IMG/VR virus record: IMGVR_UViG_2663763413_000005
Origin: a virus
Taxonomy: Duplodnaviria; Heunggongvirae; Uroviricota; Caudoviricetes
DNA: 5,802 bases
Reading direction: 5' to 3' (one strand)
Position 1 is the first letter of the stretch, and the number at the start of each line of letters is the position of its first letter. Below are positions 303 through 5,802 of this stretch, in pieces. The notes under the pieces are model-generated. The model saw only the letters and a list, made by a program, of their open reading frames with translations, searched no databases and was not told where the DNA came from. The position numbers and the translations under genes were made by a program.

Positions 303-542
303 ATGAAATCACGCGCAGCAGTCGCCTTCGGGCCGGGTTTACCCCTTGAAATTGTTGAAATTGATGTGGCACCGCCGAAGAAAGGTGAAGTGCTGGTGAA
401 AATCAGTCACACCGGGGTATGCCATACCGATGCCTACACGCTTTCCGGTGATGATCCGGAAGGTCTGTTCCCGGTGGTGCTCGACCATGAAGGTGCCGGG
501 GTGGTGGTTGAGGTCGGTGAGGGCGTGACCAGTGTGAAACCT
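303..542 (+). pseudogene. frmA: S-(hydroxymethyl)glutathione dehydrogenase / class III alcohol dehydrogenase, N-terminal ~80 codons only (3'-truncated remnant)
   Basis: ATG at 303 is preceded by AGAGGA (288-293). Translation [80 protein letters not shown] matches the N-terminus of E. coli FrmA/AdhC as I recall it. The match ends at about 542; the frame then runs on to 635 through unrelated Ala/Phe-rich sequence that is the antisense of the stf remnant. The track ORF start at 234 is an upstream alternative start. Confidence 0.7.
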
Positions 543-1000
543 GCGCTGTTAGCTGCGTTCGTTTCTGAGGTTTTCGCCGCGTTCTTCGATGATGCCGCTG
601 CTGTTTCGGATTTCTTTGCCGCCGCTGCGCTCTGAGAGGCGGCTTCAGCGTTGCGTGCCGCTTCTTCCACCATTTCCTCAAAACGACGCAATGCCTCCGG
701 CATGACATCATCTTCCGTCATGGCACCGAGAAAATCATTCAGCGTCCCCGGCTTAGAATCTTCATACACGGTGATGGTCCCGGCATGTGAAGGCGGAAAA
801 CCTTCAACCAGCAGGATAACGCTGTACTGGCCATACTCAACATCCATGCTGTAACGCCCGGCTTCATCCGGATTTTCAGAGGCCACCGTGTTCACCAGTA
901 CCGTGGTGCTGTTACGCTTTGCCTTCAGTTGAATAGTGCAGTTCTGTATTGGTTTTCCCGCACCATCTTTCAGCACACCTGAGATTTTTACTGCTGCCAT
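540..1000 (-). pseudogene. stf: Side tail fibre protein Stf, N-terminal ~150 codons only (3'-truncated); the ORF reads on into antisense frmA-like sequence to a stop at 434
   Basis: ATG at 998-1000 (minus) with GGAG five nt upstream. Translation MAAVKISGVLKDGAGKPIQNCTIQLKAKRNSTTVLVNTVASENPDEAGRYSMDVEYGQYSVILLVEGFPPSHAGTITVYEDSKPGTLNDFLGAMTEDD… matches the N-terminus of lambda Stf (orf401), followed by the Ala/Ser-rich repeat region. Similarity stops around …[12 protein letters not shown] (about 540-555). The remaining 33 codons ([17 protein letters not shown]…) are the reverse complement of the frmA-like gene. Confidence 0.75.
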
Positions 1001-1011
1001 ATCCACTCCAC

Positions 1012-1038
1012 AAAAAAGCCCGCCTGAACCGGCGGGCT
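1012..1038 (-). terminator. Rho-independent terminator downstream of lom (minus strand)
   Basis: Minus-strand reading is AGCCCGCC-GGTTCA-GGCGGGCT followed by TTTTTTG: an 8-bp GC-rich stem (plus 1017-1024 / 1031-1038), 6-nt loop and T-tract (plus 1012-1017), placed between the lom stop (1065) and the stf start (1000). Confidence 0.6.
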
Positions 1039-1064
1039 GTCATAACACTGTGTTACCTGGCTAA

Positions 1065-1664
1065 TCAGAACTTATAACCGACACCCACGATGAAACCGTC
1101 AGTGCGCCAGTCACCACTGCCGGAGCCTTCATAAGCAATATCAATGGCCACGGATTCGGTCGGGTTAAACTGCACGCCAGCTCCCCACGCCAGAGACGTG
1201 TTGCTGTGGCGACCGTCATCACTTCCGGTCAGCACATCGTGCGTTTTCCCCTTGTTGTCAGTTACGCGGAGGTAATCCCCGGAAAAAGTCGAAACACGGC
1301 TGTAAGCCATACCCGCCATCGCATACGCGCTGAACCATTCATTCACGCGCACAGACGGCCCCGCCATCACGCTGAACCAGCGGTTACGCACGGAATCTTT
1401 ATGCCAGCGGGTATCGCTGTAACGGGTCAGCTGACGATTCTTGTATCCTGCATAACTGAATGACGTCACCAGCCCCAGCGTGTCCGTAAATTCATAACGG
1501 TATTTCACGTTAATGCCCTTCAGGTCATCACTGCCTGGCATATCAGTATGGGTCTGAAGATACCCGGCGCTTAGTGTGGACTGATGCTCTGCTGCGCTCG
1601 CTGGCGTACCAGCGGCAACCAGCCAGACTACTGCGGACAGAATAACAGCACATAATTTACGCAT
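1065..1664 (-). CDS. lom: Lom outer-membrane protein (Ail/Lom/OmpX/PagC family 8-stranded beta-barrel), intact
   Basis: 199-aa ORF with ATG at 1662-1664 and GAGAGG Shine-Dalgarno 6-7 nt upstream. Signal-peptide-like N-terminus MRKLCAVILSAVVWLVAAGTPASA, C-terminal …GFIVGVGYKF ending in an aromatic residue as in outer-membrane beta-barrels. Near-identical over most of its length to lambda Lom as I recall it. Confidence 0.92.
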   Translation of the reverse strand: MRKLCAVILSAVVWLVAAGTPASAAEHQSTLSAGYLQTHTDMPGSDDLKGINVKYRYEFTDTLGLVTSFSYAGYKNRQLTRYSDTRWHKDSVRNRWFSVMAGPSVRVNEWFSAYAMAGMAYSRVSTFSGDYLRVTDNKGKTHDVLTGSDDGRHSNTSLAWGAGVQFNPTESVAIDIAYEGSGSGDWRTDGFIVGVGYKF

Positions 1665-1688
1665 AATTACCTCTCGCTTTTCTGCAAT

Positions 1689-1712
1689 AAAAAAGGCGTC
1701 ATTTCTGACGCC
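1689..1712 (-). terminator. Rho-independent terminator between J and lom (tJ-like), minus strand
   Basis: Minus-strand reading is GGCGTCA-GAAA-TGACGCC followed by TTTTTTATTG: a 7-bp stem (plus 1695-1701 / 1706-1712), 4-nt loop and T-tract (plus 1689-1694), lying between the J stop (1732) and the lom start (1664). Confidence 0.7.
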
Positions 1713-2828
1713 CGTATTGGGGTTATAAAATTCAGCTGATACTGATGCCTGCAGTGGCTTTCTTCATCACAACAACCAGCAAATCGCTGATACTTGCTGT
1801 GGGATACCAACCATTTACCCACCATGCTGATACAGAAAACTCCAGTGTCATTACACCACTGCCTGCAGGCATATCAATAACACCCGTGTAAATCAGAGTA
1901 TTATCCAGAGCCGTTCGGTTATAAATTTCAGCCCCGTTTTTCTTCACTATCAGGCGGCATGACGAATAAGTATCGCTATTCTCCCGCTCATGTCTGGCAC
2001 CGCAGAAAGCCACCGCTGGAATAACAATTTGCCGGTCAAACGACTGATCGTCATAAACCCTGACGGTAATAGTCCCTGATGGCCACCGCTCCGGTGCACG
2101 GGAGTCCCGGGGGAAAGCTTTGCCCACTGTTTTAACGAGATCGCCTTCAATCTGGTTCGCGGACAGTTTTCCCAGAACCCGACAGTTCTCGTTAATCGTG
2201 ACATTATTGAGCGTCCCGGAGTTCGCATTCACGTTACCGCTGATATCGGCATTTTTCGCCGTCAGCCGCCCGTCCGGTGTCAGGGAAAATACCGGAGGAT
2301 TGCCGCCACTGGTAATGGTGGGAGCCGTCAGATACTTCAGGAACACTTCGTTCATGAATATCTGGTTGCCCTGCGCCACAAACATCGGCGTTTCATTCCC
2401 GTTTGCCGGGTCAATAAACGCGATACGGTTAGCGGCAACCAGGAACTGGCTCAGTTTGCCTTCCTCCGTATCCTCCATACTAAGGCCAAGCCCCGCGACA
2501 TAATGCCTGCCGTCTTCGGTCTGCTCAATTTTGACGCCCCACATGGCATTCCATTTATCGTTGGCGTCCTTCCACTCTTTCGAAAACTCCTCCAGTTTGC
2601 TGGCGTTATCCTCCGTCAGCTCGACTTTTTCCAGCAGCTCCTTGCCGAGATGGGATTCGGTTATCTGGCCTTTGAAAAAATCCAGGTAACCTTCCGCATC
2701 ATCGCTCGGCTGACCAACAGCCTCCACGAATGCCGATTTGCCAACGGTGTTCACACTGCGGATATAAAAGTAATAATCATGGCCCGGTTTGATATTGATA
2801 CTGGCAGCTATCCAGTACAGCGCCGTAC

Positions 2829-2873
2829 CAAGATAGCGGGCTGTGGTCTCAAGATAGCGGGCTGTGGTCTCAA
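2829..2873. repeat. Perfect 21-bp tandem duplication (unit AGATAGCGGGCTGTGGTCTCA at 2831-2851 and 2852-2872)
   Basis: Read directly from the sequence. In frame within J, duplicating the peptide ETTARYL. Confidence 0.9.
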
Positions 2874-3210
2874 CCTGCCTGATATCGGTAATCCGCTTTT
2901 CCGAGAACCAGAACTCAAACTGTACCGTCGGATCATAAACCGCAAGATGCGGCGTGGCAGTTATCTGAAAATAGCCCGGCGTCAGCTCAATCCGCGACGG
3001 CGCTGCCGGTGCGGCAATCCGGAACGATACCGATGCCGGATCGCCCTGCTGTCCCCACGCATTTACCGCCCGGACCGTCAGCGTGTAACGCCCCAGCGCC
3101 AGTTGCCTGAAGCGGTATGTGGTTTCCGTCGTCCTGGCCGTGCTGACCAGCCGCTCACTGCCGTCATCCGCTGCCACGGTCAGGCGAAGCATAAAGCTCA
3201 CCCCCTTCAC

Positions 3211-3269
3211 CACCTTCGGCGTATCCCAGCGCGCCAGCACCTTCGGCGTATCCCAGCGCGCCAGCACCT
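3211..3269. repeat. Perfect 27-bp tandem duplication (unit ACCTTCGGCGTATCCCAGCGCGCCAGC at 3212-3238 and 3239-3265)
   Basis: Read directly from the sequence. In frame within J, duplicating the peptide LARWDTPKV. Confidence 0.9.
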
Positions 3270-3541
3270 GATACTCCCCGCTGTCTGAGGTGACTTCGGC
3301 AGTCAGGTGCTGCACCGCAGGCGGCGTGACACCATTCACCGTGCCGCTCTGGTCGCCGTCAAAGTGCGCCCCGTTATCCACGATGGCCTCTTTTTCCGGC
3401 ACATGCTGCACGGCGGTGATGGCATACGTGCCGTCGTCGTTCTCACGGATACTCACGCAGCGGAACAGGCGCTGGCGCAGCGTCGGCAGCTTCAGCCCCC
3501 ATACGCTGTATTCAGCAACACCGTCAGGAACACGGCTCACT

Positions 3542-3555
3542 TTTACCTTTACCTT
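3542..3555. repeat. Short 6-bp tandem repeat (TTTACC x2 plus partial), encoding a KVKVKV run in J
   Basis: Period-6 identity over 3542-3555. Protein reads [12 protein letters not shown], where lambda J as recalled has [10 protein letters not shown]. Confidence 0.6.
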
Positions 3556-3652
3556 CACGCCGTCGGTGACGGACTGAACCTCCACGCTGACCGGATTGCC
3601 ACTTCCGTCAACCAGACTTATCAGCGTGGTACCGGAGGATGGCAGCGTGATT

Positions 3653-4225
3653 TCACGGTCGAGCGTCAGCGTCCGGGTCTGGCTGTTCACCGCCAGCCAC
3701 GCGCCCGCCGATGCTGATACCCGCATAGTCATCATCACAGATTTCAATGACATCCCCCGGTACATGGCGAAGCCCTTCCGCACCCACGCTGAAGTCCACG
3801 GTCTGCGTTTCCAGCAGTTCCGTTTTAATCAGCCACAGCCCGGCGCGGTGCGCCTGCCCCCGGCTGGTACAGCCAAAGGCATCCATCTTCGTGACGTTAC
3901 GACCGTAACGGGCAATGGCCTGCGTATCTTCAACAAGCTCTGTCGCCGTCTCCCAGCCGTTGTTCGGGTCAATCCAGTTCACCTCAACGGCATTATGGCG
4001 GTCCTTCAGGGCGCTGAAGCTGTAGCGGAACGGCGCGCCATCATCCGGCATCACCACATTACTGCGGTTATAGGTCCACACCTTATCTGATGGTCGGTCC
4101 TGCACGAACGTCAGCGTCTGCCCGTTCCATACCGGCATACAGCGCATCGCCGAGCAGAAATCACTGAGCACATCCCACGCCTTGCGCTGTGTGGTCAGCC
4201 AGGCATTACAGGTGATGCGCGGCCT
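3653..4225 (-). pseudogene. J: J fragment 2 (middle), in the +1 frame relative to fragment 1
   Basis: Part of track ORF 3653..4330. Translation from PRITCNAWLTTQRKAWDVLSDFCSAMRCMPVWNGQTLTFVQDRPSDK… through …[22 protein letters not shown] matches lambda J, then runs out of frame ([14 protein letters not shown], stop at 3653). Confidence 0.8.
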
Positions 4226-4247
4226 CATTACAGGTGATGCGCGGCTC
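4204..4247. repeat. Near-tandem direct duplication: 20-bp unit CATTACAGGTGATGCGCGGC twice (4204-4223, 4226-4245) separated by CT; net 22-bp insertion
   Basis: Read directly from the sequence. Located inside J and coincides with the first frame break. Confidence 0.9.
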
Positions 4248-5204
4248 CGTGCCACCAAAGCCATCCGGCACCGACTGGTCGCAATTCTGGCCGATGACAT
4301 ACAGCGCCCATTTGTCCACATCCGCCGCACCGAGACGCTTCCCCATGCCGTAGCGCGGATGGGTCAGCATATCCCACAGACACCAGGCCATGTTGTTGCT
4401 GTATGCTGGCTTAAACGTTCCGTCCCAGATACCGCTGTATTGTCGCGTCTGCGGGTTATAGTTCGACGGCACCTGCAGAATGCGCCCGCGAAGATGATAA
4501 TTACGACTCACCTGCTGGCTGCCGAACTGCTCCGAGTCCACCTGTACGCTGACCAGTGCCGTGTTCGGGTAGCACTGTTTCACATCGATGATTTCGGTGT
4601 ATGACGACCAGAGCGTTTTGTTCTGCAGCTGGTCTGTGGTGCTGTCCGGCGTCATCCTGCGCATCCGGATATTAAACGGGCGCGGCGGCAGGTTATCCAC
4701 CACCACCGAGGCCAGATACTGCGAGGTGGTTTTGCCTTTAATGGTGATGTCTTTTTCCGTCACCCAGCCACCGTTACGCTGTATCTGAACCAGCAGGCGG
4801 ACTTCCGACGGATTCCGGTCCCCCTTTGAGGTGGTTTCCACCAGTGCCTGCACACCGAAGGTAAAGCGCAGACGGTCGATGTTTGCAGACGTGATGGTCC
4901 GGGTAATCGGCGTGTCGTACTTCACTTCCGTACCCAGCACCGTCTCGGAGCCGGAGGATTCAAATCCCTCCGGCGGTGTCTGCTCCTGCTCACCTGCCCG
5001 GAACACCACCGTGACACCGGAGATATTGGTATTCCCCTCACTGTCCAGCACCGGCGTACTGTTCAGCAGCACACTTTTTAATCCGTCCACCGGACCTTCA
5101 ATCGGCCCTTCACTGATGGCGTCTATCACGCTCAGCATCTGGGATGATTTCAGGTTGTCCTTCGCTTCGCGCGGGGTATGCCCCTTACTGCTGCCTTTAC
5201 CCAT
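4206..5204 (-). pseudogene. J: J fragment 1 (N-terminal, 332 codons), ending at a premature TAA created by the 22-bp duplication
   Basis: Track ORF 4206..5204. Translation matches the lambda J N-terminus up to …GGTEPRITCN, then reads EAAHHL and stops. Confidence 0.85.
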
Positions 5205-5226
5205 TCCTCACGCTCCAGAAACGACA

Positions 5227-5246
5227 AAACCGCCCTGAGGCGGTTT
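5227..5246 (-). other. Inverted repeat / hairpin in the I-J intergenic region (possible weak terminator or RNA structure)
   Basis: Plus strand AAACCGCC-CTGA-GGCGGTTT (8-bp stem, 4-nt loop). On the minus strand it is followed by TTTTGTCGTTTCT, which is only moderately U-rich, then the J Shine-Dalgarno sequence. Confidence 0.3.
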
Positions 5247-5264
5247 CACACAAAACATTCTGCA

Positions 5265-5802
5265 TCAACGACCAATCACCACAACCTGACCACCATCTCC
5301 TTCATCTGCCGTGCTGATCTCCTGCGAAATCACCCGTGACCCCACGCGCATTTCACCGTACAGAACCGGCAGAACATTGCCCTGGGCAACCATGTTATCC
5401 AGTGAGGAGAAATAGGTGTTCTGTTTGCCGTTATCCGTTGTCTGTGTACGGGGAGTTCTGGCTTTCGGTGCCAGCATCTGCGCCACACCACCGAGCACCA
5501 TACTGGCCCCCGCACCATACATTCCTGTAATTGCGGCAGCCCCCAACCAACCTGCAGGGTTCCACCATGCCACCGCAATCAGCGCCGCCCCCAGCACACT
5601 GCCTGAAAAAGACCGCCACTTTTGGCTCCCGCCAGACGCGGCACAATGTGGATCACGGCACCATTTGCCAGCGGTTCATTAAGACGGGCGGATAATTCAG
5701 TTTCACCTGCATCACGCCCGGCAATACGTACCTGATACCAGCCGTCGCTCAGTTTCTGACGAAACGCCGGAAGCTGTGTGGTCAGCGCCCGGACTGCTTC
5801 GG
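5265..5802 (-). pseudogene. I: Tail assembly protein I, 5' end outside the window, with a frame break near 5598-5606
   Basis: From the window end, one minus-strand frame reads EAVRALTTQLPAFRQKLSDGWYQVRIAGRDAGETELSARLNEPLANGAVIHIVPRLAGAKSGGLFQ and then hits TGA within a few codons. The I-like sequence continues in a different frame as VLGAALIAVAWWNPAGWLGAAAITGMYGAGASMVLGGVAQMLAPKARTPR…VVIGR (track ORF 5265..5597). Both halves match lambda I as recalled. Confidence 0.8.

Follow-up and report, generated by a model that had tools for sequence, protein, structure and literature searches.

Gene content of the contig

The window analysed here is a 5,802-bp stretch of DNA that makes up an entire contig, AOQJ01000313.1, of the draft assembly GCA_000397385.1, as was established by exact-protein look-up; the number of the contig implies that the assembly consists of at least 313 contigs. 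In a megablast search against complete E. coli genomes, positions 542-5802 were recognized as the tail region of a lambdoid prophage, the best matches being UPEC132 and eleven other genomes. According to the megablast alignments and annotation, the prophage genes occupy the minus strand and comprise, by rising coordinate, an N-terminal remnant of stf, lom (1065-1664), J and I. The order I - J - lom - stf is seen in the collinear annotation of UPEC132 and of phage PhiR47_1 (the latter being 94% identical to the prophage part of the window) as well as in the genes called on the contig itself. The stf remnant lies at 634-1000 (minus strand), and the collinear UPEC132 copy is annotated as a pseudogene missing its C-terminus. 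Since stf is truncated already in UPEC132, the prophage lineage had lost it before. The window tracks UPEC132 for 92 bp beyond the stf truncation, after which the similarity ends at the junction described below.

The initial annotation took the locus for a lambda-type J, and this identification was borne out by the Pfam domains and by the match of the reference allele to the structure of lambda gpJ (PDB 8IYK), which the undisrupted UPEC132 J matches over residues 1-1130 with E = 0. On the contig, J runs from the ATG at 5204 down to 1732 on the minus strand; instead of a single continuous reading frame with about 1,130 codons it is represented by three ORFs, in which Pfam detects FNIII-A_GpJ, Phage-tail_3, Ig_J, Ig_J_second, Phage_Tail_Tip and Ig_GpJ_C. 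Taken over the three ORFs together, this series of domains is that of the intact UPEC132 J. The first fragment (4206-5204, minus strand) contains FNIII-A_GpJ and extends from the true ATG to a stop codon created by a 22-bp insertion, so that translation from the ATG ends after 332 amino acids. The second fragment (3653-4330, minus strand) lies in the second frame, between the 22-bp insertion and a 1-bp insertion, and carries the Phage-tail_3 hub domain. The third fragment (1732-3783, minus strand) lies in the third frame and includes Ig_J (FNIII-1), Ig_J_second (FNIII-2), Phage_Tail_Tip and the receptor-binding domain; it also holds insertions of 27, 6 and 21 bp. Independent gene calls likewise gave J in pieces of 332, 191 and 652 amino acids and gene I in two pieces. 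J is broken into three ORFs because the 22-bp and the 1-bp insertions each shift the frame.

The remaining part of the window, positions 1-541, matches at 99.8% identity the 3' end of tet(D) (2-208) followed by the initial 239 nt of a gene for a class III alcohol dehydrogenase (303-541), a module that is present on many resistance plasmids. The prophage begins bluntly at 542. At the 541/542 junction there are no shared bases, no microhomology and no end of an IS or other mobile element, and the junction falls in the middle of a gene; the 110-amino acid ORF that crosses it (303-635) was found on AOQJ01000313.1 only. As judged from these alignments, the contig is a chimera of two unrelated loci. 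A 9-bp sequence, TTGAAATTG, is repeated twice at 346-363, apparently in the tet(D)-alcohol dehydrogenase intergenic region; this repeat is native, since the 541-bp segment aligns without gaps to reference tet(D) modules. A G>A substitution at 484 changes Gly61 of the alcohol dehydrogenase fragment to Asp. Together with a substitution at 5690, it is one of only two that distinguish the window from its closest references and, among the matches listed, the best-scoring complete genomes share neither of them.

The tandem duplication and its place in gpJ

The third J fragment contains, at 3211-3269, a repeat for which Tandem Repeats Finder reports a period of 27, 2.2 copies, 100% matches, no indels and a score of 118. 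The 27-bp unit, which reads CACCTTCGGCGTATCCCAGCGCGCCAG on the plus strand and encodes one LARWDTPKV on the minus strand, occupies positions 3211-3237 and is directly followed by a second, identical copy at 3238-3264. The CACCT at 3265-3269 was identified by Tandem Repeats Finder and alignment as a 5-bp direct repeat that flanked the unit in the single-copy ancestor, so that the change can be written as ABA -> ABABA. For a sequence of 5.8 kb to match itself exactly over 32 bases at a given offset, the chance is on the order of 5802 x 4^-32, and the presence of the repeat is not a matter of chance. The length of the unit being a multiple of three, the local reading frame is kept. Two identical adjacent copies with zero mismatches, as claimed in the initial annotation, are indeed present in both the raw sequence and the output of Tandem Repeats Finder, and the translation of the ORF at 1732-3783 (minus strand) gives the same peptide that had been quoted, LARWDTPKV twice, locally in frame. 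What did not hold is the implication that J is otherwise intact and simply longer by nine residues: the frameshifts caused by the 22-bp insertion at 4204-4225 and by the 1-bp insertion at 3697 are situated between the ATG and the duplication. As the duplication lies downstream of both of them, the doubled LARWDTPKV would not be made as part of J, and with J frameshifted twice upstream the sequence, taken at face value, would leave the duplication without any effect at the protein level.

In the intact allele, the nine duplicated residues are residues 638-646 of J and belong to the Pfam domain Ig_J (610-714), the match to which is split in two by the duplication. Ig_J is the first of two consecutive FNIII domains that come after the hub domains of lambda gpJ. 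Both of these domains, FNIII-1 and FNIII-2, change their position as the lambda tail tip opens on binding to LamB (PMC11101478). Lambda gpJ has the identical peptide in its FNIII-1 (Ig_J, PF24421), with WDTP starting at residue 641, and the same order of Pfam domains; unlike the contig J, which is divided into three ORFs and carries four further insertions, it is encoded by one ORF with no insertion at this position. Judged from the usual FN3 pattern and from an AlphaFold2 model, residues 638-646 comprise strand B, in which the invariant Trp is located, and extend into the beginning of the B-C turn. When the duplicated domain was modelled with AlphaFold2, the FN3 sandwich was kept, with a mean pLDDT of 80.7. 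Residues 42-48 of the model (KVLARWD, mostly from copy 2) form a strand, and the alignment, which pairs copy 2 with the homologues, biases the model in this respect; residues 30-37 (GEYQVLAR, running into copy 1) form a loop with pLDDT below 50.

The alignment to lambda J and other homologues that had been suggested as a check showed a single copy everywhere. The unit occurs once in lambda J and once in the near-identical allele of UPEC132; the 27 homologue fragments that were aligned, which come from E. coli, E. albertii, Klebsiella and Salmonella, are single-copy as well, each with a 9-column gap opposite the extra copy. No homologue carries the two diverged copies expected of an old repeat; an ancient intragenic repeat of J is ruled out, since every homologue is single-copy, and on these alignments the duplication is derived, not ancient. 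The event had been called probably recent. That it is derived stands, as all relatives are single-copy; recency is only one option, and an error in the record is indicated at least as strongly.

The duplicated form was also sought in larger collections. A 220-nt query was composed of 44-mers, each placed over one junction (those of the 21-, 27-, 22- and 6-bp events and of the chimera) in such a way that either side of a junction was too short to seed a match on single-copy sequence. No match to this query was obtained among 5,426 complete E. coli genomes, 72,556 plasmids and 50,697 phage records. A 35-mer over the 27-bp junction was absent from species-representative genomes, IMG/VR and JGI metagenome contigs, and the 652-amino acid ORF that contains the duplication is a singleton known from this contig only. 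A protein search with the duplicated domain returned 198 candidates, all of them short fragments, the best of which (91% identical) is single-copy; the search missed the window's own 652-amino acid ORF, so it is a weak negative. A recurrent slippage hotspot or a phase-variable repeat was ruled out, the 27-bp junction being absent from every collection searched, and the duplication is, to judge from these searches, private to this record.

Insertions relative to UPEC132

The alignment of positions 542-5802 to UPEC132 comprises 5,261 columns with one mismatch and six gaps that total 79 gap bases. Each of the six gaps reflects an insertion in the window, and there are no deletions; the only mismatch, at 5690, is silent (Ser42) and lies in gene I. 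Among the matches listed, relatives such as UTI89 (about 2% substitutions) and PhiR47_1 span 5,182 bp, with one spanning 5,181, as compared to 5,261 bp in the window. Since relatives with about 2% substitutions keep their length, natural divergence in this region is essentially indel-free.

Besides the perfect 27-bp tandem copy, which the alignment places at 3211-3237, J contains four other insertions. A perfect 21-bp tandem duplication of CAAGATAGCGGGCTGTGGTCT (2829-2849, the repeat extending over 2829-2873) is flanked by the 3-bp repeat CAA, falls in frame in FNIII-2 at about residue 767 of J and is absent from all relatives. The 6-bp tandem duplication TTTACC at 3542-3547 is in frame at about residue 545 and has 2 bp of flanking homology (TT), while the insertion of a single C at 3697 shifts the frame at about residue 495. 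The fifth insertion in J, of 22 bp (4204-4225, the repeat extending over 4204-4245), consists of a 20-bp tandem copy of CATTACAGGTGATGCGCGGC and a filler CT; it shifts the frame at about residue 327 and creates a stop codon at 4206-4208. The sixth insertion, CT at 5599-5600, is not a copy of adjacent bases and causes a frameshift in the tail assembly gene I. Three of the six insertions are thus frameshifts, by which both J and I are broken. The dinucleotide CT is common to the untemplated filler of the 22-bp event and to the insertion at 5599; no donor for the CT filler or for the duplicated units was found elsewhere in the window. When the insertions are removed, a single mismatch to UPEC132 is left and J becomes 100% identical to WP_000515309.1. 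The initial annotation saw the 27-bp repeat correctly but gives no sign of having connected it with the nearby 21-bp and 20+2-bp repeats, which Tandem Repeats Finder also reports (the latter with a period of 22), or of having noticed the upstream interruption of J.

It may be asked whether the duplication could be real and J functional, with nine extra residues in FNIII-1 that are tolerated or make an adaptive change of the tail tip, in which case only the frameshifts would be erroneous. In favour of this scenario, the 21-, 27- and 6-bp events are all in frame and the modelled domain still forms an FN3 sandwich. We nonetheless regard it as very improbable. There is no principled ground on which three of the insertions should be accepted and the other three rejected, and three in-frame events out of six are not significantly above the chance expectation of one in three. 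The invariant Trp of strand B lies within the duplicated segment, a site at which none of the homologues carries an insertion, and the model that speaks for a preserved fold is biased by the alignment in which copy 2 is paired with the homologues.

The three clean duplications have a feature in common. In the single-copy reference, the 27-bp unit begins with CACCT and is directly followed by another CACCT, the two lying 27 bp from each other; in the window, two units in succession are followed by CACCT, i.e., the ABA -> ABABA layout. At the spacing of the unit, the 27-mer has a direct repeat of 5 bp, the 21-mer one of 3 bp and the 6-mer one of 2 bp, and no such repeat flanks the 22-bp event. 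In a simulation in which random tandem duplications of the same three lengths were placed in the reference, a summed flanking homology of at least 10 bp was reached in 0.34% of cases (P = 0.0034 for the three clean duplications jointly), and for the 27-mer alone the probability of a repeat of 5 bp or more was 0.016. Such microhomology favours polymerase slippage or template switching over a blunt mis-joining of contigs, and it fits an artefact produced by a polymerase in vitro and real events in vivo equally well. The CT filler and the CT insertion at 5599 are not predicted by simple slippage in vivo.

Two other sources of the repeats were considered and rejected. Slippage driven by a hairpin is not supported, as the single-copy and the duplicated regions fold no better than shuffled sequences on either strand (z from +0.13 to -1.27). 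An imperfect inverted repeat (3253-3271 and 3303-3321, with a perfect 10-bp core, CAGCACCTGA and TCAGGTGCTG) lies directly against the CACCT at the downstream end of the duplication; the hairpin that it could form is not above shuffled controls (z about -1.3). A footprint of a transposon target site was also discarded, as no common IS is known to produce target duplications as long as 20-27 bp.

Origin of the duplication

One biological explanation of the repeat is a real and recent replication slippage between the CACCT repeats, which would have produced a neutral, functionless and strain-private duplication in a J undergoing decay as a pseudogene. In favour of it, the two copies match perfectly and have 5 bp of homology at their flanks, the microhomology over the three clean duplications appears to be above chance (P about 0.003), and the single copy in all relatives makes the event derived. 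Moreover, the frameshifts in J and I are consistent with relaxed selection, and stf is already a remnant in the UPEC132 prophage lineage. The spectrum of changes is what makes this explanation appear unlikely to us, although it is one that we take seriously. In E. coli, substitutions outnumber indels, multi-base insertions are rare, and bacterial pseudogenes lean to deletion. A set of six insertions, not a single deletion and just one substitution, a silent one, within 5.2 kb is unlike ordinary E. coli mutation and, four of the insertions being of at least 6 bp, is not credible as ordinary divergence. In addition, the region keeps its length in relatives that differ by about 2% substitutions, none of the events recurs in a sister genome, and the blunt chimera on the same contig would be left unexplained.

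If all six insertions were real, they could be ascribed to a mutator that favours duplications, of the kind caused by defects in flap processing or by template switching and similar to yeast rad27 mutants. Insertions of the ABA -> ABABA class, which arise between short direct repeats, dominate in rad27-delta yeast genomes, and the insertion-only spectrum with flanking microhomology seen in the window matches this class (PMC5677150). As in the rad27/FEN1-deficient yeast, the 27-, 21- and 6-mer are perfect adjacent copies with direct repeats at the spacing of the unit; the 22-bp event, in which a filler of 2 nt is present and flanking homology is lacking, departs from that class. Neither the CT filler nor the blunt chimera belongs to the rad27 signature, and the evidence for a mutator is confined to this 5.8-kb contig, which is why we consider its action highly unlikely. 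A duplication-biased signature of this kind has so far been described mainly in engineered rad27/FEN1-type mutants, and we know of no natural E. coli isolate in which it was described. We would give equally little credence to the view that the six insertions and the tet(D)-prophage junction are all real and reflect a process of duplication between short direct repeats operating in a natural E. coli isolate or prophage.

Instead, the 27-bp duplication is probably non-biological and one of several errors in a draft contig of poor quality. An error of the contig is favoured by the insertion-only spectrum, by the chimera, by the uniqueness of the junctions, by the lack of any sign of selection, and by the identity of the repaired J to the UPEC132 protein. 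The blunt fusion in the middle of a gene on the same contig is an independent sign that the building of this contig was wrong, or at least unusual. The contig resembles the small duplications and chimeric joins of fragmented draft assemblies in several respects: it is short, it has a blunt junction, its discrepancies are insertions only, and their removal restores an intact gene. A likeness to such duplications and joins is a matter of general knowledge of draft assemblies. Six insertions and a blunt misjoin lie on this one contig, and the sequence left after removal of the insertions is a J that is already known. The contig differs from blunt mis-joins of draft assemblies in that its duplications carry flanking microhomology. 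A further point against an error is that, the insertions aside, the sequence of the contig is highly accurate at the level of single bases.

According to this preferred explanation, the duplications would have arisen during DNA preparation, reading or assembly. Template switching by a polymerase in vitro is one candidate route; the joining of overlapping pieces without collapsing the overlap is another. The true genome would then carry a single-copy LARWDTPKV in a normal J. We know of no specific sequencing platform or assembler that gives such an insertion pattern. In several genomes with the identical prophage only one place matches the window, and a misassembly from paralogous J copies in one genome is, in view of this single matching place, not obviously applicable.

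If the duplication is an error, its message is one of caution about the data. Seen on its own, a perfect "recent in-frame duplication" in a gene for host range is appealing; the comparison with a near-identical relative reveals that it belongs to a set of six discrepancies, all of them insertions, on a contig that is chimeric. AOQJ01000313.1, and possibly all of GCA_000397385.1, is unsuitable without read support for the study of J variants, of the tet(D) context or of prophage pseudogenisation, and the finding is best treated as a data-quality flag for AOQJ01000313.1. If, on the other hand, the duplication is real, it would be a neutral slip, private to this strain, in a prophage gene that is already dead, and would carry little biological weight.
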